This document shows positions 1,518 through 27,785 of a stretch of DNA of 64,000 nucleotides, one piece after another. The position numbers and the translations under genes are program-made. The notes beneath the pieces are model-generated. The model did no database searches and was not told the DNA's origin. It saw only the letters and a program-made list of their open reading frames with translations. Every line of letters starts with the position of its first letter. Position 1 is the first letter of the stretch. The stretch is from a virus (Duplodnaviria; Caudoviricetes): IMG/VR virus record IMGVR_UViG_3300024272_000051, positions 1 to 64,000 of that record. One strand, given 5' to 3'.

Positions 1518-1567
1518 GTGCTAGTGCTGTGTAGTGCGATAAATGGAAATTTTGTGAGGTGATAGCT

Positions 1568-1876
1568 ATGAAAATGTGGATTGATGATGTCCGCTCAAAG
1601 CCCGAAGGATATGATTATTGGTGTAAAAGTGTTAATGAAGCAAAATATAAAATTACCTCAATTGAAAAAGTTCGTATTTTCGGCAGTCTCACATTAATTG
1701 ATATTGATCACGATGCAGGCGATTATGCAAATGATGGTGGCGACTATGCTAAACTCCTTGATTGGTTCGAAGAGACTGGTCGTAACTATCCTATCAGAAT
1801 CCATTCTATGAATCCTGTAGGCGTGGAAAAGATGCGCAGGATTATTCAGAGAAATGGTTGGACAGAAATAAGATGA
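1568..1876 (+). CDS. Cyclic-phosphate-processing receiver (cREC-like) domain protein
   Basis: WIDDVR...IDIDHDAG...IHSMNPVG motifs; GAGGTG SD. Confidence 0.75.
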   Translation: MKMWIDDVRSKPEGYDYWCKSVNEAKYKITSIEKVRIFGSLTLIDIDHDAGDYANDGGDYAKLLDWFEETGRNYPIRIHSMNPVGVEKMRRIIQRNGWTEIR

Positions 1877-4254: not shown

Positions 4255-4481
4255 AAAAAGGAGAAGTATGTTTTGGATTAGTGCAGATAAAGCAATCCCT
4301 GCCTTTAACAAGCAAATTGTAAAAGTGAAGGTTGCAGATGTAAGCAAGAACTATATTACTTACGCATACTACAATCATGGACTCCAAGAATGGTGGTCAC
4401 ATGATGGGCATTGTTTAAATGACAATGTGTATGCGTGGAAACATGTGAAAAGACATATAAATGCATGGTAAGGGAGATAAC

Positions 4482-5225
4482 ATGAAGAATATTTTGAATA
4501 GAGCTGCGTTGTTGTTTTGTTGTATCGCAGTATTGACGGCAGTGTGTGTTGCCGTCTTTTTTATGGAAGACACAAAGGCATCCGGTACTTTTGACGCTAT
4601 GACATACGAAAGTGAAATGTCAACTGAAGCCCCAATGGGATGTGCTCGTTTTACCGACGAAGAAATTGATTTTCTTCGCGAAATTATAAATCGTGAAGCG
4701 GGGGCACAAGATGAGTATGAAGTCGATGTTCCCCCAGTTCAAAATAATATTGAGGCAAATTGCACAGAGCTCGCGGTAAGCGATGACAACAGCTCTGGCT
4801 CAAAAGAATTTAACGACTGTGTCGATGAACAGCCTGCAGAGATTTTGTATTCGGCAGAAGATCTAAATATACTTGCTCTTGTTATTTATACAGAGGCCGG
4901 TGGAGATATTTATTTGGACGAGACCAGAATGATGGTTGGAAATGTATTTTTAAACCGAGTTGTAAGTAATGGATTTCCAAATACTTTCTATGAAGTTGCA
5001 ACAGCATATGGGCAATATAGCACCTTGTATTGGACTGGTATCGTGTGGCCGGAAAGGTCTACATATGAATGTGAAAAAGCAGCTGTTGAGAGAGCCTTTA
5101 ATTGCGCAAAAAGACTGCTTGATGGTGAACGCATCTTTGAGACAAACGACGTTGTATGGCAGGCTGAGTTTCCACAAGGAACAGAAACGGTTAAAATTCA
5201 AGATGGAATCTTCTTTTGTAGATAA
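4482..5225 (+). CDS. SleB/Hydrolase_2-like cell wall hydrolase with N-terminal membrane anchor
   Basis: LALVIYTEAGG, VGNVFLNRV, FPNT..EV...GQYS motifs; hydrophobic N-terminus. Confidence 0.75.
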   Translation: MKNILNRAALLFCCIAVLTAVCVAVFFMEDTKASGTFDAMTYESEMSTEAPMGCARFTDEEIDFLREIINREAGAQDEYEVDVPPVQNNIEANCTELAVSDDNSSGSKEFNDCVDEQPAEILYSAEDLNILALVIYTEAGGDIYLDETRMMVGNVFLNRVVSNGFPNTFYEVATAYGQYSTLYWTGIVWPERSTYECEKAAVERAFNCAKRLLDGERIFETNDVVWQAEFPQGTETVKIQDGIFFCR

Positions 5226-5229
5226 AAAT

Positions 5230-5305
5230 GCTGGCGTAACTCAGTTGGTAGAGTCCCGGTTTTGTACTCCGGTTGTCGCGGGTTCGACTCCTGTCGCCAG
5301 CTCCA
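5230..5305 (+). tRNA. tRNA-Thr(TGT)
   Basis: Cloverleaf; loop TTTGTAC; U31-U39 mismatch; CCA. Confidence 0.9.
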
Positions 5306-5443
5306 CCGTTATTATATAACGGCTCATTATCCTTTCTAACCTGCTCTGATAAGCGTTGTTGGGTGGTTCCCAACTGATGTGTGGGTGTGATCGGAACCAC
5401 ACAAAGAATGACAATGCCCATTTAGATGGGAACCGATCAATTC

Positions 5444-5520
5444 GTGACATTGGTGTTTAATGGTTAGCACATTGGCTTCCCAAGCCAAGAGTGCCGGTTC
5501 GAATCCGGTATGTCACTCCA
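5444..5520 (+). tRNA. tRNA-Gly(CCC)
   Basis: GTGACAT/ATGTCAC acceptor, TTGGC-TTCCCAA-GCCAA, TCCA. Confidence 0.9.
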
Positions 5521-5554
5521 CCACTGCCTGAATGCATCTTCTGGCAGTAAAAAC

Positions 5555-5674
5555 CTCCCTTAAAGGCACCGGGTTTATGACGAGATGCAACAACGTCATA
5601 ATCGAGAAACCGCAAGATAAGAACCGACTTATGCAGTACGCCCTGCACACAGAAATGTGGCGGAAGTGAGGGAG
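5555..5674 (+). ncRNA. Candidate multi-branched RNA between tRNAs
   Basis: CTCCCT/AGGGAG closing stem with internal TTATGACG/CGTCATAA, TGCAG/CTGCA and CACA-GAAA-TGTG hairpins. Confidence 0.4.
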
Positions 5675-5678
5675 ACAT

Positions 5679-5755
5679 CCGGGTTTAGCGAAGTTTGGTA
5701 TCGCGCTTGGTTTGGGACCAAGAGGCCGTGGGTTCGAATCCCGCAACCCGGACCA
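5679..5755 (+). tRNA. tRNA-Pro(TGG)
   Basis: CTTGG-TTTGGGA-CCAAG, T arm, ACCA. Confidence 0.95.
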
Positions 5756-5796
5756 AAATTCTTAACACTACGTATCAATAGAAAGGGGAACAAATA

Positions 5797-6240
5797 GTGA
5801 CAAGACAGGAATTTATTGATAATGTCAGATCTTTTTATGATCTAATTAGTTTTTGCAACGAAGAAGATCTTGATGTTTGTTGCGACATTCTTGACGAAGA
5901 GGATGCTAATCAAGAAATCATGGCGAGGCTTAGAGATTTTGACACATGGCTAGATGTTCGCAGATTTATTGACGAAATTCCAGATTGTGACTACTATCGA
6001 GAAGACGACTGGGGAGATTTTGAAGCGGCAGAAGATTATTTCGAGGACTACAAAGAAGAAGCCCTTCGAATTATGGATGAGGATGATCGTTGGGACGAAG
6101 ACGAAGAAGTTTACTTCATCGAAGAAGATGTGGAGCAAAAGCAAACAGTCACGACGGTCGGAGATTATTTTGACCCGGATGATGAAGAAGATGAAATATC
6201 CACAGATGCACTTTTTGAAGTGCTAAGCAAAGCGGGATAA
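5797..6240 (+). CDS. Extremely acidic protein (DNA-mimic candidate)
   Basis: About 54 of 147 residues are D/E by hand count; GTG start with SD. Confidence 0.75.
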   Translation: MTRQEFIDNVRSFYDLISFCNEEDLDVCCDILDEEDANQEIMARLRDFDTWLDVRRFIDEIPDCDYYREDDWGDFEAAEDYFEDYKEEALRIMDEDDRWDEDEEVYFIEEDVEQKQTVTTVGDYFDPDDEEDEISTDALFEVLSKAG

Positions 6241-6253
6241 AAAAATAAAAATT

Positions 6254-6449
6254 GTTTGCAACGGATTACCCTTATCTCAGAAGCAATACATAAAGGGTGC
6301 TTCGTATTGTAAATCGAAGTTTTGAGCATACGATATAATTTCAAGGCGAGTGAAGCGCCTAAGCGACCCAGGTCTCGAATCTACGATCTCAAAGAGATCG
6401 CAAATTCAAGACCTTAGTCGCCCAAGCACTCCACTTGCAGGTTGCAAAC
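6254..6449 (+). ncRNA. Structured RNA module 1
   Basis: GTTTGCAAC/GTTGCAAAC closing stem; CTTCG-TATTGTAAAT-CGAAG hairpin; long hairpin capped by CGATCTC-AAA-GAGATCG. Confidence 0.7.
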
Positions 6450-6452
6450 CAT

Positions 6453-6663
6453 ATAGGAATTTATAATGTATATAGGTCTGCTCATCTACAATATACATAA
6501 CGGCAGCCACTTCATATTGTAAATTGAAGTAAAGTTTTGAACGTTTTCACACAAGCTCTTCAGCTCCGATCCTAAAGGATCTTCGCGATCAGCTTGTGTG
6601 TTCCATCAGCATAATCTTCTCTTACATGAAAGGAAAGAGAAGATAATGGATTATAGATTCTAT
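6453..6663 (+). ncRNA. Structured RNA module 2 (paralog of module 1)
   Basis: ATAGGAATTTATAAT/ATTATAGATTCTAT closing stem; CTTCA-TATTGTAAAT-TGAAG hairpin; CACACAAGCT/AGCTTGTGTG hairpin with GATCCTAAAGGATC cap. Confidence 0.7.
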
Positions 6664-6690
6664 GTCATAATAACAACAGGAGGAATAAAA

Positions 6691-7332
6691 ATGTATTTAA
6701 AAGAAGCGTTTCGTTATCAGAATTTTCTGAACGGTATGATTGACAAGACTCTTGGTTATCTGTCTTTAAACCGCTTCACGACTATGACGGTACAGCATCA
6801 TTTACGCAGCAAAGTTAACCCGGAAGCAGAAGATGAAACCATTGACCTGTCCTCAGAACGTGAAATCGAGTATACCGCCGATCAGATGATTGCATTCTTG
6901 GAATACATCCTGTGCAGAAAGCAGGTACTGACAGAAGCCATCAGCAAAGCAAAGAAAGACTGTGAAATCGATATCGATGCAGAAATTGCGAACAATCGTG
7001 TACGTCAACGTGTTTCGGCTACTCTGTCCAGAATTGGGAACATAAGACCAAGCGAACGAATTTCACGTGGCTATGCATACAAATTTAACGCAGAGGGCAA
7101 TCAAGTCCAGTACACATATGACGTGAAAGAAGTTACAACCATTGACTTCAATCGCAATGCTGTCAAGCGCCTCAGTAAGAGTTTGATCGGTCTTGCTGAC
7201 GACACATCGACAGCCATCGACAAAGCAATGGTTGAGTTGATGGTGGAATACGAACCCGAATTCAGCGTCAACGATTCCTTTAACGATGTTATGGAACTGT
7301 TTTTGGCACACGCAGAGACAAACGACAAGTAA
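6691..7332 (+). CDS. Helical coiled-coil protein (MYLKEAFRYQN...), loosely DIP1984-like
   Basis: AGGAGG SD and ATG at 6691; MxLxEA N-terminus and amphipathic helices; family assignment tentative. Confidence 0.8.
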   Translation: MYLKEAFRYQNFLNGMIDKTLGYLSLNRFTTMTVQHHLRSKVNPEAEDETIDLSSEREIEYTADQMIAFLEYILCRKQVLTEAISKAKKDCEIDIDAEIANNRVRQRVSATLSRIGNIRPSERISRGYAYKFNAEGNQVQYTYDVKEVTTIDFNRNAVKRLSKSLIGLADDTSTAIDKAMVELMVEYEPEFSVNDSFNDVMELFLAHAETNDK

Positions 7333-7347
7333 AAAACGAGACAGCTT

Positions 7348-7819
7348 TTTAGTTGTCTCGTTCAGGACTAAAGTAGAGTTTTATTTGTGGTCGCTTCAGA
7401 CGCAGATGAAGTATGATGCTGCGAGGCCGAGTTGCCAGAAACTCATCTTTTTACAAATAGTAATGCATTGCCCAAGCATAATCAAATGGGCGCTCTTGCT
7501 TTTTCAAAAAAATAGTTATTCGACACACAAACTGTTTGCTACTCACAATGCCACAACTGCTTAATTTGTTAATTCGTTATGACCTAGGTATATCCTCGGT
7601 CTTGCCAATAAAAGCGCAGCACAAGCAACGTTTCATCAACCGTCTATTAATAGAAAAGAATTCTTGAAGATTTAGGATCTTCAATATCCTTTCTGCTCAA
7701 GGTATTTTTGAGTAGTAGCAATTGATAGTCTGATTTAGGTCGGACCAAACTATGTGGATTTCCACATTAAAATTGACTTCAAAGAAAATGAAGCTTTAGT
7801 TCTGAACAAGGCAACTAAA
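7348..7819 (+). ncRNA. ~470-nt structured ncRNA downstream of the coiled-coil gene
   Basis: 26-bp closing helix 7348-7373/7794-7819 (2 G-U, 1 mismatch); nested helices 7417-7423/7615-7621 and 7425-7431/7595-7601; several local hairpins. Confidence 0.75.
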
Positions 7820-7840
7820 TAACAATCGAATGTAGCAACA

Positions 7841-7890
7841 AGACCCAAACATCTCTTGAATTTTTTATCAGGCGAGTTTGGGTCTTTTTT
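7841..7890 (+). terminator. Intrinsic terminator
   Basis: AGACCCAAAC...GTTTGGGTCT followed by T-run. Confidence 0.75.
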
Positions 7891-7916
7891 ATTTCCGGAA
7901 ATGTCGTGGAGGTAAT

Positions 7917-8465
7917 ATGAAGAAATATAAAGAAATGTTTCAGCCCATTGGTGTTTTTGAAATAAAATCTAGACTTCGAGTAAGTGACCCGTGTTACGAC
8001 CCAAATGTATGGTGCTCTGGTACGCTATTTGCTAAAAAAGGAAATTGGATCGCCGCAGCAATGAAATTTGACAATCGCAGAACAAATGGGTGGGGAGATC
8101 GCATTGCGATACTTGCAGCAAAACATGAAAGTTGCCCTATTCCCATTGATGCAACAACTATAAACAACACCGCCGCCAACTTAAAAGCGGGCGACTGGTA
8201 CGAAACGGGATTTGAAGTTGGTGTAGACAGCGGCCAAGCAGGATTTTACGACAACGATGCGTTTATTGCCAGAGACGGTGGGAGAAACAGGGATTGGTAC
8301 AACGAAGTGTGCGATATGACAATTCTTAATAACATGGGTGTCTTAGAAGATTGTGTTGTTGTTAGTTCTGGATACGGAGATGGTGGATATCCGTGTTATT
8401 ATCATGCAGATAAAAAAGGACAAGCAGATTACGTCTATGTAATTTTTATCGATCCTGATGATTGA
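7917..8465 (+). CDS. DUF4241-like protein
   Basis: VSDPCY, VGVDSGQAGF, SSGYGDGGY motifs. Confidence 0.7.
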   Translation: MKKYKEMFQPIGVFEIKSRLRVSDPCYDPNVWCSGTLFAKKGNWIAAAMKFDNRRTNGWGDRIAILAAKHESCPIPIDATTINNTAANLKAGDWYETGFEVGVDSGQAGFYDNDAFIARDGGRNRDWYNEVCDMTILNNMGVLEDCVVVSSGYGDGGYPCYYHADKKGQADYVYVIFIDPDD

Positions 8466-9926: not shown

Positions 9927-10018
9927 GCCCCTGTAGCTCAACGGTAGAGCAGCGGGTTTATACCCCGTAGCGCCAGATAAGCGGCAGGTTTAGGGTTCGA
10001 ATCCCTACAGGGGCACCA
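9927..10018 (+). tRNA. tRNA-Ile(TAT) with long variable arm
   Basis: GCCCCTG/CAGGGGC acceptor, GCGGG-TTTATAC-CCCGT, ~21-nt variable region, ACCA. Confidence 0.85.
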
Positions 10019-11405: not shown

Positions 11406-11879
11406 ATGCAAAAACAAAATACAATTGGAGAATTTGCAGGTAAATATTATTTCCTGAGCAACTTTTATCCTGCACCGGTAACATGTTTTGGACATACATT
11501 TCAGAACAACGAAGCTGCCTTTCAAGCTGCAAAGTGCCCTGCACGTATGCAGGAGTTTTGTGGACTAAACCCGTCGGAGGCCAAACGCCTTGGTAGGCGC
11601 GTTTATCTCCGTACTGACTGGGAAGACATCAAGGATGATGTTATGTACGAAGTTTGTAAAGCAAAATTCTCCCAGAATTCTAGTCTTGCGGTTCTCCTGT
11701 TAATGACCGGTAACGCGGAACTCATTGAGGGAAATACGTGGGGAGATCGAGTTTGGGGGATGTGTGACGGAGTGGGAGAGAATCGGCTCGGCAAGATCCT
11801 GATGAAGATCAGGGATGAGTTTAACATTGAACACACACAGACAAAGGAAGTGGGTGTTGACAGTGGTTGCCCGGTGTAA
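11406..11879 (+). CDS. NADAR (YbiA-like) N-glycosidase
   Basis: FLSNFY, EAAFQAAK, AKRLGR, DW, KAKF, IEGNTWGDRVWG, GENRLGKILM motifs. Confidence 0.9.
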   Translation: MQKQNTIGEFAGKYYFLSNFYPAPVTCFGHTFQNNEAAFQAAKCPARMQEFCGLNPSEAKRLGRRVYLRTDWEDIKDDVMYEVCKAKFSQNSSLAVLLLMTGNAELIEGNTWGDRVWGMCDGVGENRLGKILMKIRDEFNIEHTQTKEVGVDSGCPV

Positions 11880-15401: not shown

Positions 15402-15947
15402 ATGAAAATCCTTGTTGTTGTTGATATGCAAAACGACTTTGTGGATGGAGCATTGGGCACAGCGGATGCCGTTGCAATCGTTCCCAAGGTTGTCGAGAAG
15501 ATCAATACTTTTGATGGAATTTTTGCAGTAACGCATGACACACATCATTCAAACTATATCGATACGCAGGAGGGGGAGAACCTGCCTGTGATTCATTGTA
15601 TCGAAGACACCGAGGGATGGATGTTGGCGGCGCCTGTATTCGAAGCGTTGGATAAAAGAGTCCAGGGCGGAGTAAGATCCGAGGTTTTTCTTAAACCTAC
15701 ATTCGGCTCTGTTGAATTGGCTGACTGGCTGACTCAGATCGATAGAAAGGAAAAAGTTGACGAGGTAGTCCTTGTTGGTCTGTGTACCGATATCTGTGTT
15801 ATCTCCAACGCTATGCTTATCAAGGCGTTCATGCCCGAAGTGAAGATCACTGTTGATGCATCTTGCTGTGCCGGTGTTACTCCGGAAAGCCATAAGAATG
15901 CATTAGAGGCAATGAAAATGTGCCAAATCAATATCGAAGGAGCATAA
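15402..15947 (+). CDS. pncA: Nicotinamidase (cysteine hydrolase)
   Basis: VVDMQNDF, THDTH, HC, K, GLCTDICV catalytic and metal motifs. Confidence 0.9.
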   Translation: MKILVVVDMQNDFVDGALGTADAVAIVPKVVEKINTFDGIFAVTHDTHHSNYIDTQEGENLPVIHCIEDTEGWMLAAPVFEALDKRVQGGVRSEVFLKPTFGSVELADWLTQIDRKEKVDEVVLVGLCTDICVISNAMLIKAFMPEVKITVDASCCAGVTPESHKNALEAMKMCQINIEGA

Positions 15948-15950
15948 GGT

Positions 15951-16739
15951 ATGATTACAGTCAATGGTTGTATTGTCAATTGTACGCAGTTCCCTGATGG
16001 CACTTCGTCTATGAGATGCGAAAACTATGGAAGTGGTAAAAACATTATTGAATGGAAGTTTGACGGGGATCACGAATGTATCATTATTTGGCATTTGGTT
16101 CATCATATTCGTGCCAATGATCCCGAAACTTGTATCTTTTTATTCTTGCCCTACATTCCAAATGCAAGAATGGACAGAGTCAAGGCGTGCGACGAGGTGT
16201 TTACACTGAAGTGGTTTGCAGAGTTTATTAATGCCCTCAACTTCACAAAAGTCTTTGTCGAAGACCCTCATTCTAATGTAAGCGCTGCACTAATCGACAG
16301 AGTTGACATTAAGGGTGTTGGGGCGAATGTAAGAGCTACCATTAATCTCATTGGGGCGAACAAGGACGAAGTCTTGTTCTGCTACCCAGATGAAGGGGCA
16401 ACAAAGAAGTATTCTGACCAGATCAAGGGAGAATATGTGTTTGGCATTAAACACCGAGACTGGCGCACCGGCAATATCCAGAAGTTTGAATTGGTTGGAG
16501 CAGATAAGGTTCGTGGAAGAACTGTTCTTATCGTCGATGACATTTGTTCTCGTGGCGGTACATTTATGCATACTGCTAAGGCTTTGAAAGAAGCGGGCGC
16601 AGGAAAAGTGTTCCTGTACATTACTCACTGTGAGAATACAATCTTCAACGGAGAGCTGCTTAGCAGTGACCTTATCGAGCATATTTATACTACAGACAGC
16701 ATTTATCGTGGTTGCCACAAAAAGATAACTGTGCTGTAA
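15951..16739 (+). CDS. Prs-like pyrophosphokinase (Adps-like)
   Basis: FPDG, PYIPNARMDR, DPHS, PDEGA, IVDDICSRGGTF; short 262 aa; adjacent to NAMPT-like gene. Confidence 0.85.
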   Translation: MITVNGCIVNCTQFPDGTSSMRCENYGSGKNIIEWKFDGDHECIIIWHLVHHIRANDPETCIFLFLPYIPNARMDRVKACDEVFTLKWFAEFINALNFTKVFVEDPHSNVSAALIDRVDIKGVGANVRATINLIGANKDEVLFCYPDEGATKKYSDQIKGEYVFGIKHRDWRTGNIQKFELVGADKVRGRTVLIVDDICSRGGTFMHTAKALKEAGAGKVFLYITHCENTIFNGELLSSDLIEHIYTTDSIYRGCHKKITVL

Positions 16740-16755
16740 TTGGAGGAATAAAAGA

Positions 16756-18243
16756 ATGATAGATTATAACCCATTGTTGTGTCTTGATTTTTACAAGACG
16801 GCACACGCTGATCAGTACCCAAAAGGTTTGACCAAAATGGTTTCTTACTACACCCCTCGTATGTCTCGTCTGCAGGACACTCAGAAGATCACAATGTTTG
16901 GGCTTCAGGCATTCATTGGAGAATATTTAATTAAGGCTTTTGGTCGATGGTTTTTCGATAAAAGTTTGGAAAATGTTCTTAATGATTATAAGCGCGTTCT
17001 CAGATCCACTATTGGTACAGACGGTGTCGGCGAACAACGCATCGAAGAGCTCTATAATCTTGGGTATTTACCCCTGAAGATTAGAGCACTTCCCGAGGGG
17101 ACAAGGTCTGACATCAAGGTGCCACAGATTGAAATTTCAAATACACATCCAGACTTTGTGTGGCTGGTAAATTCCATCGAAACAATGCTTTCTTGTACAA
17201 TGTGGCATACCCAGGTGTCTGCAGAAGTCGGATACCGCTACCGCCAGATCGTCAATGAGTTTGCAGAGAGAACGTGCGACGACAATGTCTCTCGTGCAAG
17301 ACTTCTTGGCGATTTTTCTATGCGAGGACAAGAGAGCGTTGAGAGCGCAACTAAGAGTTCTGCTGCATTCTGCCTCAGCTTTTTGAATACAGCAACTGTT
17401 CCGGCAATTCTTTGGTTGGAAAGAAATTATGATTGCGACTGTGAAAAAGAGCCCGTCGCATTTGGCGCACTTTCTACTGAACACAGCGTAATGTGTTCCA
17501 ACTTTGCGATTGATGGCGATGAAATCACACATGTCCGTCGGCTCCTTACCGAGATTTATCCGCACCAGAGTTTTTCCATGGTCAGCGACAGTTATGATTA
17601 CTGGAATCTGGTAGACAATATCTTGCCACAGCTTAAGGAAGAAGTTTTGGCACATGATGGCTTTATCTCTATCCGTGGTGACAGCGGCGATCCTGTGGAG
17701 GTTGTTACACAGACGGTGTTTAAGCTGTGGGACACTTTCGGCGGAACAGTAAATGCCAAGGGATTTAAGGTTCTCAATCCACATGTAAAGGCGATTTATG
17801 GCGACAGCATCACGCCTCAGCGTTGCCGTCGTATCTATGAGATTCTGGAAGAAAACGGTTTTGCAATCAATAATGTTTCCTTGGGAGTAGGCTCGTTCTC
17901 CATGCAGTGTCTGGAGACTATTTGGAAGGATGATGTAGTCTACAATCCGTTCACCAGAGATACGTTTGGTATTGCGGTTAAGGCAACATATGCGGAAGAC
18001 GAGTGCGGCAATCCTATTATGATTTTCAAAAACCCAAAGACCGATTCTGGTCGTTTCAAAAAGTCTCAGCGAGGTTGTTGTCGTGTGTATAAGACCGGAG
18101 ATGGTTATGCATATGAAGACGGTCTTACTTGGGCGGAGGCACAGGAAAACAATGAACTGGGTACAGTTTTTGAAAATGGTGTCTTTACCAAACGGTTTAC
18201 GCTGAGTGAGGTCCGCCAGAATTTGCACGAGGGGAATTTCTGA
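16756..18243 (+). CDS. NAMPT/Namat-like phosphoribosyltransferase with Ala at the Asp219-equivalent position
   Basis: DFYKTAH, DFSMRG, NTATVPA, TEHS, VSDSYD, IRGDSGDP, IYGDSIT, GVGS, RDT, KKS motifs. Confidence 0.9.
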   Translation: MIDYNPLLCLDFYKTAHADQYPKGLTKMVSYYTPRMSRLQDTQKITMFGLQAFIGEYLIKAFGRWFFDKSLENVLNDYKRVLRSTIGTDGVGEQRIEELYNLGYLPLKIRALPEGTRSDIKVPQIEISNTHPDFVWLVNSIETMLSCTMWHTQVSAEVGYRYRQIVNEFAERTCDDNVSRARLLGDFSMRGQESVESATKSSAAFCLSFLNTATVPAILWLERNYDCDCEKEPVAFGALSTEHSVMCSNFAIDGDEITHVRRLLTEIYPHQSFSMVSDSYDYWNLVDNILPQLKEEVLAHDGFISIRGDSGDPVEVVTQTVFKLWDTFGGTVNAKGFKVLNPHVKAIYGDSITPQRCRRIYEILEENGFAINNVSLGVGSFSMQCLETIWKDDVVYNPFTRDTFGIAVKATYAEDECGNPIMIFKNPKTDSGRFKKSQRGCCRVYKTGDGYAYEDGLTWAEAQENNELGTVFENGVFTKRFTLSEVRQNLHEGNF

Positions 18244-18668
18244 TGGACTATTTTTTAGATACTCAAAATGCATATAAGCGTTTAATTGATGAGTTTGCCG
18301 CACATGGTAAGCTCATCATTGCTTATGACTTTGATGATACTGTCTTTGATTATCATAATCGCGGAGAAAGCTATGAAGATGTTATTAACTTGCTAAGAAG
18401 GTTGAGACCGTATGCAAGCTTTATCGTATTTACATCGTGTTCCAAAGAAAAAGAGGCCGGGATCGCCTCCTATCTTGAGGAAAATGATATTCCATACGAC
18501 AGTATTAACGAGGACATTATCACCCAGTTTGGTGGCAGGAAAGTGTACTACAACCTCTTTCTTGACGACCGAGCTGGTTTGAGAGAGGTTTATGATTTGC
18601 TCATTCGATTTTTGAATGAAGTCGAATCTCAAACCGATTTGAAAGAGAGGGTTGTACATGCTCGCTGA
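18243..18668 (+). CDS. HAD-family phosphatase
   Basis: AYDFDDT motif I, FTS, K..LDDRAG; overlaps both neighbours. Confidence 0.75.
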   Translation: MDYFLDTQNAYKRLIDEFAAHGKLIIAYDFDDTVFDYHNRGESYEDVINLLRRLRPYASFIVFTSCSKEKEAGIASYLEENDIPYDSINEDIITQFGGRKVYYNLFLDDRAGLREVYDLLIRFLNEVESQTDLKERVVHAR

Positions 18669-19413
18669 TCCAAAGAGAACAAAGGACGAAATCGTCCAGT
18701 GGATTCGTAACTATTTTGAAGAAAACGGGAAAGGCTGCTATGCGGTCGTCGGGATTTCCGGCGGTAAAGATAGCAGTATCGTAGCCGCTCTGTGTGTTGA
18801 AGCGCTCGGTGCAGATAGGGTTTTTGGAGTCCTGATGCCAAATGGTGAGCAGCGCGACATTACTGACTCCGCTCGTCTGGTGGAGGCTCTTGGCATTAAC
18901 GATGTTATAATCAACATCTACGGAGCTTACCGTGATATGATTGATAGAATTGATCGCGCTTTGCCAGATGGAATCAGTGAGCAGAGCAAGGTCAACCTTC
19001 CACCGCGTCTTAGGATGGCTGCATTGTATGCGGTGGCACAATCTCTACCGGGTGGTGGACGCGTTGCTAACACATGCAACAGATCTGAGGATTTCGTTGG
19101 CTACTCTACGAAGTTTGGCGACAGCGTTGGTGACTTTAGTCCGCTGGCCAACCTGATGGTACACGAGGTTATCCAAATTGGTCACGAGCTGCCAATCCCA
19201 AGGGATCTTGTTGATAAGACTCCATCTGATGGACTGTGCGGGAAAACAGATGAAGATAATCTTGGCGTAAGTTATCAAGAAATTGACCGCTATATCGAAA
19301 GTGGTGTTTGCGCCATTGAGAAAAATGAACGCATTATAGAGAACCTACATCAAAAAAATCTACATAAACTTAGACCGATGCCCGCCTTTGGAGATGTCGC
19401 ATGGGAGAAGTAA
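18658..19413 (+). CDS. nadE: NH3-dependent NAD synthetase
   Basis: GISGGKDS, N..PRLRM, TCNRSE..GYSTKFGD, PSDGL, DE; no glutaminase domain. Confidence 0.92.
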   Translation: MLADPKRTKDEIVQWIRNYFEENGKGCYAVVGISGGKDSSIVAALCVEALGADRVFGVLMPNGEQRDITDSARLVEALGINDVIINIYGAYRDMIDRIDRALPDGISEQSKVNLPPRLRMAALYAVAQSLPGGGRVANTCNRSEDFVGYSTKFGDSVGDFSPLANLMVHEVIQIGHELPIPRDLVDKTPSDGLCGKTDEDNLGVSYQEIDRYIESGVCAIEKNERIIENLHQKNLHKLRPMPAFGDVAWEK

Positions 19414-19494
19414 TTTCTGTCGGGTTTATCATGGCCGCCAGCATAGCGGTATTTATCGCCTACAATTCTGGCGGATATGGTGGAGGTGGAGCAT

Positions 19495-20760
19495 TTGGAT
19501 AAAGCTATCTTGGCTCTGATCGAATTGCAACAAACCACAGGAATGAAAAGAAAGCTTGCTATTGTTGAAGAAAATCGCGACAATGAGCATTTCACAAGAT
19601 TGCTGTATTATGCTTGTAATCCAAGGCTTTCGTATAAAGTGTCGGAGGCAACTCTGAGACGACTGATACCTGCGGCATGGCATACCCACCAGTATAGAGA
19701 TATTTTTGATGTGTGCAATGAGCTGTCAAAAAGAAAAGCGCTTGACGACGAAACAACGTTTAGAGTTTGCTCGTTTTTGCGAACTCAGAATGCTGGTACG
19801 CAAGAACTATATATCAAACTGTTGGCTAAAACGCTTCGGCTCGGCATCACCGCTAAAAGTATCAATAAAGTTATCCCTGGGCTGATCCCGGAATGGGAAG
19901 TCCAGCAAGCTTATCCAATCGAGAAGTATCCACTAAAAGATGGATGTTGGTTTTCTGTTTCGCAAAAGCTAAACGGTGTCCGCGCCACCTTTTATCGTGG
20001 GGAGCTGATCGGCAGAAGCGGTATTGCGTTCGATGGTCTTGAACACATTACAGATGAGCTTAGCCACTTCCCACATCTGGTTTTTGATGGAGAGCTGACC
20101 TTGGCCAACAAGGGCACTCTTTCTGACAATGAGGCTTTTCGCTTAACCACGGGAATTGTGAACTCTGAAAATGATGATAAAACGGTGATTTGCTTCACAA
20201 TTTTTGACATGCTTCCTGCGGACGAGTTTGATACAGGTGAAAGCGTAGCTACATACAAAGAGCGCCGACAACAGCTTGATGATTTACAAGAGTGGTTTAC
20301 TGGAAATGACCATATACACATTCTTAATTCCTTATATAGCGGTGACGACCAAAGCATTGTTCCGAAATTGTTGGAGAAAATGGTGTCTGAAGATAAAGAG
20401 GGATTAATGATAAATCTAGATGTCCCCTACCAGTGCAAAAGACATCGCGGTATTCTTAAAGTCAAACAATTCTACACAATGGATCTACCGATATTAAGAT
20501 GTGAGTCTGGGAGTGGAAAGCTTGCCAATACACTTGGGGCAATTATAGTTGACTACAAGGGAAATGAGGTTGGAGTTGGGTCTGGCTTCACAGACGAGCA
20601 GAGGTCTTGGATTTGGACACACCAAGATGAATTGGTTGGTAGCCTTGTGGAAATTAAATATAAAGAACAGTCTTATGACAAATCGACGGGGTGCTGTAGT
20701 TTACAGTTCCCTGTTTTTGTGTCGCTAAGAACGGATAAACAGGATGTTAGTTTTGGGTAA
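19495..20760 (+). CDS. ATP-dependent DNA ligase
   Basis: QKLNGVR, FDGEL, FD, EGLM, LKVK, VGSGF, LQFPVF motifs. Confidence 0.9.
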   Translation: MDKAILALIELQQTTGMKRKLAIVEENRDNEHFTRLLYYACNPRLSYKVSEATLRRLIPAAWHTHQYRDIFDVCNELSKRKALDDETTFRVCSFLRTQNAGTQELYIKLLAKTLRLGITAKSINKVIPGLIPEWEVQQAYPIEKYPLKDGCWFSVSQKLNGVRATFYRGELIGRSGIAFDGLEHITDELSHFPHLVFDGELTLANKGTLSDNEAFRLTTGIVNSENDDKTVICFTIFDMLPADEFDTGESVATYKERRQQLDDLQEWFTGNDHIHILNSLYSGDDQSIVPKLLEKMVSEDKEGLMINLDVPYQCKRHRGILKVKQFYTMDLPILRCESGSGKLANTLGAIIVDYKGNEVGVGSGFTDEQRSWIWTHQDELVGSLVEIKYKEQSYDKSTGCCSLQFPVFVSLRTDKQDVSFG

Positions 20761-27296: not shown

Positions 27297-27785
27297 ATGA
27301 TTGATGTTGGTGAATGTTACTTTGCCTGTGATGAGTGTCCGATTAGCGATGGTGTGGAGTACCGCCTTCGGATTGCTGAAGAGGGTGGGTATGAGCCACA
27401 ATTGGAGTATTGCGGATGTGACAAAATTCAGGACGAATTCTTGTTTGGTGGATATTGTGAAGATGCCTTTGTTTGCAAACCACGCAAGAAGAAAACCGGG
27501 AAGCGCAGAACTGGATCAGAGTATCGAAGAGCTATGCGAATCAAGCATAGAGACGATCTGATGGCAATTCTTGATCTTGGATACAAACCGTATGTGGGAT
27601 GGGCCGATTGGGAGTGGGTAGATGGGGTGTGGAAGCGCACCGGTACATATATCAAGTTCCCAAGAGATTCCAGAAAAGAAAAATATCTAAAGAAATGTGC
27701 AAATAGACATGTCCGCAGAAGCAAAGAAATATATCGAGGGAATCAGTACAAAAAGTGCTATGAATATTGGTGGCAGTTGTATTAA
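27297..27785 (+). CDS. Hypothetical protein, Cys-rich N-terminus and basic C-terminus
   Basis: AAGGAGG SD. Confidence 0.65.
   Translation: MIDVGECYFACDECPISDGVEYRLRIAEEGGYEPQLEYCGCDKIQDEFLFGGYCEDAFVCKPRKKKTGKRRTGSEYRRAMRIKHRDDLMAILDLGYKPYVGWADWEWVDGVWKRTGTYIKFPRDSRKEKYLKKCANRHVRRSKEIYRGNQYKKCYEYWWQLY

Follow-up and report, generated by a model that had tools for sequence, protein, structure and literature searches.

A gene and a helix-closed RNA form a conserved unit in phages and prophages of gut and rumen Clostridia

Large conserved RNAs of bacteria and phages that have no known function are, to our knowledge, few (OLE, ROOL, GOLLD and raiA), and each of these four has opened new biology or a new RNA architecture. 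OLE is described as a large bacterial non-coding RNA that works as a ribonucleoprotein (RNP) with the dedicated proteins OapA, OapB and OapC. Its gene adjoins that of a dedicated partner protein, and the two genes share a transcript. The Y RNA or YrlA bound by the Ro60 protein (Rsr) is encoded in rsr-yrlBA-rtcBA operons, beside the partner gene and RtcB-type repair genes, and the ends of this RNA form a long stem. In the RNase III stalks of rRNA precursors and phage transcripts the flanks pair in a long, near-perfect duplex that brackets the functional RNA. ROOL (RF03087) and GOLLD (RF02032) are large (400-800 nt) structured RNAs of Firmicute phages and prophages that often lie near tRNA genes, contain pseudoknots and have no known function (PMC5737381). 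Here we describe a locus of the IMG/VR virus record IMGVR_UViG_3300024272_000051 (104,404 bp, estimated to be 88% complete), of which the first 64 kb were analysed (below, the window). In this locus the gene of a 213-amino acid (aa) protein, at positions 6691-7332 of the + strand, is followed by a structured RNA of about 490 nt, at 7340-7827. The gene and the RNA behind it are one conserved unit, almost never found apart, and we consider it fairly probable that they are transcribed together and make up an RNA-protein module of a new family. Its carriers are phages and prophages that live in Clostridia of the gut and rumen.

The RNA belongs to the general kind of large phage RNAs but has a dedicated partner. 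Like ROOL and GOLLD it is a large phage and prophage RNA with a pseudoknot and, sometimes, tRNA genes nearby; it differs from them in its fixed partner gene, its closing helix of 30-45 bp and its poorly conserved interior, and because of the fixed protein partner and the long closing helix we regard it as distinct from both. Neither RF03087 nor RF02032 was found in the window or in 20 homologous loci at gathering score, nor over positions 5100-8100 at E up to 10, and the OLE model (RF01071) gave no match in the window, in 5100-8100 (E up to 10) or in the 20 loci. Unlike the membrane protein partner of OLE, the partner here is modelled as a soluble acidic helical dimer, and its carrier is a phage and not an extremophile chromosome. 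The lineage of the phage resembles the Ro60 operons in having RtcB, RlaP, CCA-adding enzyme, Thg1 and PTH2 nearby, but the RNA is 3-4 times longer than a Y RNA and the protein model has the DIP1984 fold instead of the Ro60 ring. The Rfam models of Y RNA and YrlA gave no match in the window or at E up to 10 over 5100-8100, a tRNA search of the window found no tRNA-like domain in the phage RNA, and no Ro60 (TROVE) gene is adjacent, the adjacent protein having no Pfam match and the neighbours no TROVE domain. Bracketing of the RNA by a duplex is shared with the RNase III stalks, although cleavage would here be an analogy only.

At gathering scores Rfam 15 returned only tRNAs from the window and the 20 homologous loci, and at E up to 10 over 5100-8100 only chance rows (miRNA-like); the flanks of the gene, which the original prediction had presented as parts of a candidate new RNP system, thus match no characterised family. 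Literature searches on DIP1984, septicolysin, ROOL/GOLLD and new ornate phage RNAs gave no description of the gene-RNA module. Both gene and RNA are absent from all the catalogues searched, and the pair is probably a new RNA-protein particle.

The open reading frame (ORF) at 6691-7332 is a real gene of a large family without a catalogue match. At least 366 homologs were found by a word-indexed search, and a full profile search gave 1093 clusters (50% identity), of which 500 have E values up to 1e-30, with proteins that are nearly all 200-220 aa long. The homologs were found in metagenomes of the gut and rumen, in viral contigs and in genomes or metagenome-assembled genomes of Clostridia, including Oscillospiraceae, Faecalibacterium, Ruminococcus, Lachnospiraceae, Intestinimonas and Intestinibacter; among the cultured gut carriers are Intestinimonas butyriciproducens, Faecalibacterium tardum, Intestinibacter bartlettii and a Lachnospiraceae isolate. 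Searches of the protein against Pfam, PHROG, NCBIfam and PADLOC gave nothing significant. The Pfam family DUF7873 (PF25283), a lead from a protein atlas, had no match in the genome of the phage at E up to 10, and blastn of the whole locus against the phage collection found no match.

The 140 non-redundant homolog loci were taken from viral and bacterial contigs. In about 138 of them a gene-poor region, closed by a helix of 30-45 bp, lies behind the gene, and independent gene callers leave a gap of 490-630 nt behind the gene. In the window, the downstream flank (7333-7900) has a minimum free energy (MFE) of -160.8 kcal/mol, compared with -121.6 kcal/mol for dinucleotide shuffles (z -6.1). The RNA starts 7 nt after the stop codon, and its ends pair in a closing helix, P1, of 41 bp. 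The 26-bp helix with G-U pairs that had been noticed in the original prediction turned out to be the 11+15 bp core of P1. The terminator proposed to follow it was found as well, in the form of a terminator-like hairpin (7840-7886, -23.1 kcal/mol) that ends in a run of six T at 7885-7890 and that a simple terminator scan missed because its inner loop is long. The sites given by a sigma-70 promoter scan were no more numerous than in shuffles. The 103 fully delimited loci have RNA spans of 288-727 nt (median 432). In virtually all loci that bear the pseudoknot core described below, the roughly 50 nt ahead of the core form the helix with a segment located 300-500 nt downstream, at energies of -40 to -84 kcal/mol; in the 35 loci without the core the long helix is still at the same place. 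A small ORF (~93-98 aa) is inserted in two loci, L016 (L016:3658-3939) and L025 (L025:3625-3921), and in these the helix-closed RNA follows the insertion, starting about 330 nt past the stop codon. The junction before the 3' arm of P1 reads AAAAT(T/G) in many cluster representatives (judged by eye and uncounted).

Between clusters the helix arms are 32% identical; a cluster's own arms pair with -50.6 kcal/mol and swapped arms with -23.6 kcal/mol, so that the arms covary on a large scale. The helices hold 398 G-U pairs, and the + strand pairs better in 88 loci as compared to 15 for the - strand, which argues for an RNA made from the gene's strand and not for an element of the DNA. An inverted repeat acting as an origin, a recombination site or a mobile insertion might also consist of long arms around a variable interior, and ORFs of 100-127 aa that overlap the region in GC-rich loci might be unrecognised small genes. 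We nevertheless consider such explanations very improbable, since, besides the strand preference of the G-U pairs, the arms covary rather than keep a binding sequence, the pseudoknot covaries too, no frame is kept and the region has a fixed place with respect to the gene. Within the RNA, the longest ORF is generally longer where the GC content is higher, with 26 aa at 21% and 127 aa at 59%, and no reading frame runs through the pseudoknot without a stop in more than 8 of 44 representatives. The downstream region is a non-coding, structured RNA of the + strand.

The most conserved part of this RNA lies at the inner end of P1. When the flanks were compared by blastn with 160 homologous loci, a 37-nt core behind the gene (7391-7427) appeared that is 85-97% identical where the protein is only 37-45% identical, and iterated nhmmer found it in 105 of the 140 non-redundant loci, usually 50-70 nt after the stop codon. 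The core contains an H-type pseudoknot. Across 78 distinct sequences aligned without gaps (A3), 98.5% of the cells that should pair according to the pseudoknot are standard pairs, compared with 29-52% in slid controls. Five pairs of alignment columns change on both sides: G-C to C-G (11/28), U-A to C-G (18/40 and, in another pair, 24/33), A-U to G-C (21/37) and several types (17/41). Altogether 64 cells changed on both sides, compared with 15 in shuffles, and none of 500 shuffles reached the observed covariation. The pseudoknot persists in RNAs with GC contents anywhere between 21% and 60%, and a covariance model of the core (R1) has one match in the window.

These data also bear on whether the folded region acts in cis, as a 3' untranslated segment of the gene's own mRNA with a stabilising or regulatory effect on the gene. 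The region begins close to the stop codon, the two are most likely on the same transcript, and a 12-bp hairpin just past the stop codon (7335-7362) has as its 3' half the outer end of the 5' arm of P1, which makes the two pairings alternatives. By competing with the outer end of P1 this hairpin could act as a switch; as a speculation, it could protect the cut mRNA or compete with P1 formation. However, a region of 290-540 nt with a 30-45 bp helix and a near-invariant pseudoknot far exceeds what mRNA protection needs, the pseudoknot is much better conserved than the protein in the same loci, and in L016 and L025 another ORF separates the gene from the RNA. We regard a purely cis-acting role as improbable.

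The interior of the RNA is far less uniform. In the window it forms several hairpins, and across 41 representatives its stability relative to shuffles has a median z of -1.7 and is negative in 40. Within two well-populated clusters the interior helices are 86-87% paired and show 35 and 29 both-side changes, as compared to 13-26 when slid, although these structures were predicted from the same alignments, which favours them. Apart from the 3' junction motif, the interiors were found to have no 7-mers in common. About a quarter of the loci (among them L100, L126, L029, L027, L030, L031, L034, L043, L058, L065, L070, L075 and L079) have a second inner motif just after the 5' arm of the 30-45 bp closing helix, namely a GACAGUACGYAACUGU hairpin and, after it, a hairpin with an AGCGAU loop, and no pseudoknot. 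On the basis of these comparisons, at least two classes of RNA stand behind one protein family.

The linkage of gene and RNA was also followed in whole genomes. Four bacterial genomes of 2-4 Mb each have one copy of the gene and exactly one R1 match, 52-64 nt behind it; in a fifth the gene is accompanied by a variant core without an R1 match. Among 151 genomes of one family, two have the gene and the same two have a strong R1 match right behind it, while one further genome without the gene has a weak match of 24.5 bits that is probably noise. It could be supposed that the RNA acts alone, for example as a self-assembling RNA-only complex of the ROOL/GOLLD type, and that the protein is a co-transcribed neighbour or a folding chaperone. 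Large phage and prophage RNAs near tRNA genes for which no protein is needed are indeed known (PMC5737381; PMC12286853), the protein here is acidic, and tRNA genes lie within 3 kb of the module in 38 of 147 loci, 66 of these 70 genes being on the same strand. Such autonomy of the RNA is nevertheless difficult to reconcile with its near-absolute linkage to a single protein family, which holds over 33-100% protein identity in spite of changes in all other neighbours. Going by the cited papers, ROOL and GOLLD are without a fixed partner of this kind, and the RNA has no similarity to their Rfam models. We therefore think it unlikely that the RNA works without the protein.

The partner protein was modelled with AlphaFold2 from a 61-sequence alignment. 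The model has a mean predicted local distance difference test (pLDDT) score of 95.8 and consists of long helical hairpins and two beta hairpins. A structural search of 48,161 chains is topped by 3KDQ, the DIP1984 protein of Corynebacterium diphtheriae (Z 10.6, root-mean-square deviation 3.3 A), of which 145 of 152 residues are aligned over model residues 1-186; the next row has a Z of 8.8 over 61 residues, and the following ones span one helical hairpin only. Foldseek placed 3KDQ at rank 47 with a probability of 0.77, and its searches of PDB and BFVD gave no row at E <=0.001. At the level of sequence DIP1984 was not matched in NCBIfam (E up to 10) or Pfam (E up to 1), and a profile search of PDB sequences returned nothing, 3KDQ not being among the rows at E up to 10. 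The loose resemblance to DIP1984-like proteins remarked on in the original prediction is thus borne out by the fold and has no counterpart in the sequence; the phage protein is also about 60 residues longer than 3KDQ. Because Z values below about 13 may reflect a common arrangement among helical proteins, homology of the 213-aa protein to DIP1984 is likely rather than proven. We know of no function for DIP1984, whose relatives often carry the label 'septicolysin'.

The suggestion that the protein is oligomeric also found support in modelling. The homodimer model has an ipSAE of 0.65, whereas the best of three controls scored 0.00; at least 97% of the contacts agree between runs, and the partner pLDDT is 87 or higher. 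Among proteins whose structures were solved as pairs, 20 of 30 attain the mark applied to ipSAE, and among those solved as single chains, 1 of 23 does. According to these predictions, the protein probably forms a homodimer.

If the gene and the RNA are indeed a co-transcribed RNA-protein module, a single transcript would begin at a promoter upstream, span both the gene and the RNA and end at the hairpin (7840-7894). The RNA's long perfect helix would then be a processing stalk, by analogy with rRNA precursors, where a double-strand-specific nuclease such as RNase III might cut and free the RNA from the mRNA, and the dimeric protein would bind the RNA to give a stable particle. We infer co-transcription, processing, the ends of the RNA and the binding of the protein to it; none of the listed public sequencing runs that contain this DNA is an RNA run. 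Several points weigh against this picture. An acidic protein such as this one (pI about 5, net charge about -7; family median pI 5.1) would be an uncommon kind of RNA binder. The gain in stability of the RNA interior over its shuffles is modest, and the interior sequence is poorly conserved between clusters; MAFFT across clusters and with the 12 nearest relatives aligned reliably only P1 and the pseudoknot and gave no whole-molecule consensus structure. With about a quarter of the loci having the second inner motif in place of the pseudoknot, what is taken as one RNA family may be two. Neighbours for RNA repair occur in the lineage of the window but not in every lineage, a distant family member adjoins TerD, FtsH-like and UvrD genes, and RtcB was not found in the phage record to which the window belongs. 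As regards the charge of the protein, 13 positions are K or R in at least 80% of the family sequences.

What the module does can be approached through its surroundings. A role in RNA maintenance or counter-defence is suggested, more tentatively than the module itself, by its position in the lineage of the phage among tRNA, RNA-repair (RtcB, RlaP, CCA-adding enzyme, Thg1, PTH2, T4-type RNA ligase) and NAD-salvage genes. A more specific proposal, which we regard as possible but doubtful, is that the dimer and its RNA of about 450 nt form a phage RNP for RNA damage control, a counterpart of Ro60 and Y RNA. It would scaffold RtcB, RNA ligase, the CCA-adding enzyme and Thg1 on broken tRNAs, or decoy host defence nucleases that cut tRNA or rRNA, and the terminal helix would serve as both processing stalk and docking site of the protein. 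Another possibility, raised in part at the outset, is a toxin-antitoxin or abortive-infection pair or an anti-defence decoy, in which the RNA neutralises the protein or soaks up a host nuclease. The phage- and prophage-borne, patchy distribution (2 of the 151 genomes) would suit it, as would the location in an island of accessory or counter-defence genes, among them those for NAD salvage, NADAR and tRNAs. Type III (ToxIN-like) systems, however, have a tandem RNA repeat ahead of the gene, whereas here the RNA is behind it and the only tandem repeats over 6200-7950 are two trivial rows with 8-10 nt periods. The PADLOC defence-system search did not match the 213-aa protein, and neither Pfam and NCBIfam nor the structure search revealed a nuclease or other toxin signature in it. 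We give this explanation little credence.

Compared with the other large RNAs, the module offers a built-in handle in its dedicated, well-folding and probably dimeric protein partner, and it is directly open to experiment because it is carried by cultured gut bacteria. It also gives the DIP1984 fold a first genomic context, and its place among phage tRNA, RNA-repair and NAD-salvage genes ties it to the current question of phage survival under host attack on RNA.

The structured sequence upstream of the gene is a different matter. All the features named in the original prediction (the ORF, both structured flanks, two upstream modules and a recurring stem) are present, and the leader at 6241-6690 is strongly folded, with an MFE of -134.4 kcal/mol compared with -88.8 kcal/mol for dinucleotide shuffles (z -8.2). 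Its modules A and B share a 21-nt hairpin and an 11-nt block preceding it, and both closing helices are kept in the nearest relative, L166; at the place of the long hairpin of module A the relatives seem, by eye, to hold a hairpin of different sequence. The exact 20-nt leader hairpin occurs in only two other viral contigs and in two copies in the phage's own genome, and its use as a genome-wide phage promoter was rejected given just two copies in 104 kb. A search with 3-kb flanks gave a single locus matching the leader. With larger flanks the whole two-module leader was found in relatives whose protein is at least 55% identical, always upstream and on the same strand, at distances from the gene of 0.85 kb (partial), 2.8, 3.5, 4.3, 5.4 and 7.9 kb. 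In these relatives the next gene after it is a 170-aa gene (four lineages) and/or RtcB. Since the record of the window is without RtcB and the window holds no relative of the 170-aa gene, the simplest reading is that the leader came to abut the 213-aa gene by loss of intervening genes. From this distribution we conclude that the leader is a lineage-specific structured element separate from the gene-RNA module, and perhaps a cis-regulatory RNA leader of the phage RNA-repair block; it has no Rfam match. The earlier idea that the RNAs on both sides and the protein are one functional unit therefore holds for the downstream RNA, which accompanies the gene throughout the homologs and in whole genomes, and fails for the upstream 410-450 nt, which are conserved in close relatives only and elsewhere in position.

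A stem of the form CTTCR-N6-12-YGAAG had been proposed to recur four times across the locus. There are five occurrences in 64 kb, with 1.6 expected, of which four lie within 1.5 kb and the fifth at 27366. The clustering is not due to chance, yet the four sites are not one repeated element and do not point to a shared module: 6300-6319 and 6510-6529 are true paralogs in the leader, 7394-7411 is stem 1 of the conserved pseudoknot, and 7777-7793, a part of the P1 3' arm, lacks conservation in other loci. The features of the locus and its surroundings are collected in Table 1.

Table 1. Positions of the features described (window positions unless a homologous locus, L, is named)
Feature	Position	Strand	Remark
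Stand-alone cyclic-phosphate-processing receiver domain	1559-1876		cREC_REC, E 5e-14
Cell-wall hydrolase	4461-5225		
147-aa protein, extremely Asp/Glu-rich	5797-6240		no family match
Structured two-module leader	6241-6690	+	outside conserved gene-RNA module
Leader module A	~6251-6452	+	closed by TTGTTTGCAAC/GTTGCAAACCA
Leader hairpin, copy 1	6300-6320	+	CTTCGTATTGTAAATCGAAGT; direct-repeat family D1
Long imperfect hairpin in module A	6346-6438	+	45-nt arms; inverted repeat I1
Leader module B	~6453-6660	+	
Leader hairpin, copy 2	6510-6530	+	90% identical to copy 1
Ribosome-binding site	6678-6683	+	AGGAGG, 7 nt before ATG; read from sequence
Gene for 213-aa acidic protein	6691-7332	+	DIP1984 fold (model); new sequence family
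Hairpin just past stop codon	7335-7362	+	12 bp; inverted repeat I16; fold -17.4 kcal/mol
Closing helix P1, 5' arm	7340-7392	+	41 bp with 7775-7827, 5 G-U
H-type pseudoknot at inner end of P1	7394-7424	+	near-invariant; nhmmer, alignment A3, model R1
Pseudoknot stem 1	7394-7397 with 7408-7411	+	
Pseudoknot stem 2	7401-7405 with 7419-7423, plus 7407 with 7416	+	often one further pair in other loci
Variable interior, several hairpins	7425-7766	+	z -2.3 in window
A-rich 3' junction strand	7767-7774	+	TTAAAATT; directly before P1 3' arm
P1 3' arm	7775-7827	+	holds CTTCA..TGAAG at 7777-7793
Terminator-like hairpin (7840-7886)	7840-7894	+	runs into TTTTTTATTT; -23.1 kcal/mol; inverted repeat I10
DUF4241 gene	7917-8465		
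NADAR-domain gene	11406-11879		
NAD-salvage set	15402-19413		nicotinamidase-like isochorismatase, PRPP-synthetase-like protein, NAMPT, NAD synthase
DNA ligase	19477-20760		
Leader in relatives	L169:3262-3729, L175:2441-2905, L178:4209-4574, L181:1649-2088, L163:4887-5500		

The window has a GC content of about 40% and is gene-dense, with nearly all genes on the + strand up to about 52 kb and 14 tRNA genes. The genes that surround the module in it have accessory and counter-defence functions. Elsewhere in the lineage of the phage the module lies near RtcB, RlaP, CCA-adding enzyme, Thg1, PTH2, Macro and Band-7 proteins, DUF4241 and NAD-salvage genes. In close relatives a Thg1-type tRNA-His guanylyltransferase, a CCA-adding enzyme and RlaP stand together a few kb downstream of the module (L169:16581-16630; L170). 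RtcB, RlaP and the CCA-adding enzyme were considered as universal neighbours and rejected, being present in few loci (3-kb flanks), with an unrelated context in the distant family member. In other lineages, among the 147 loci, the neighbours include a T4-type RNA ligase (8 loci), a metallophosphatase (16) and GP88 (22). A 753-aa protein matching the Pfam family RdRP (PF05183, E 1.3e-13) lies about 0.5 kb upstream of the gene in 20 of them (L069:165-2426 and 19 others); it may be a single-subunit RNA polymerase resembling the prophage polymerase YonO. A reverse transcriptase domain, as expected of a retron, was found neither among the neighbours in the window nor in the commonest neighbour families of the 147 loci.

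Some single genes of the window deserve mention. The cREC_REC gene at 1559-1876 occurs although the phage record is without RtcB. The Asp/Glu-rich protein encoded just ahead of the leader could be an anti-restriction protein of the DNA-mimic type. The NAD-salvage set and the NADAR gene resemble a phage answer to host defences that deplete NAD, and in L173 the same NAD-salvage/NADAR set adjoins the module. Directly after a tRNA-Met, the tRNA-Ile gene with the anticodon TAT (9927-10018) is, at 92 nt, unusually long for its type.

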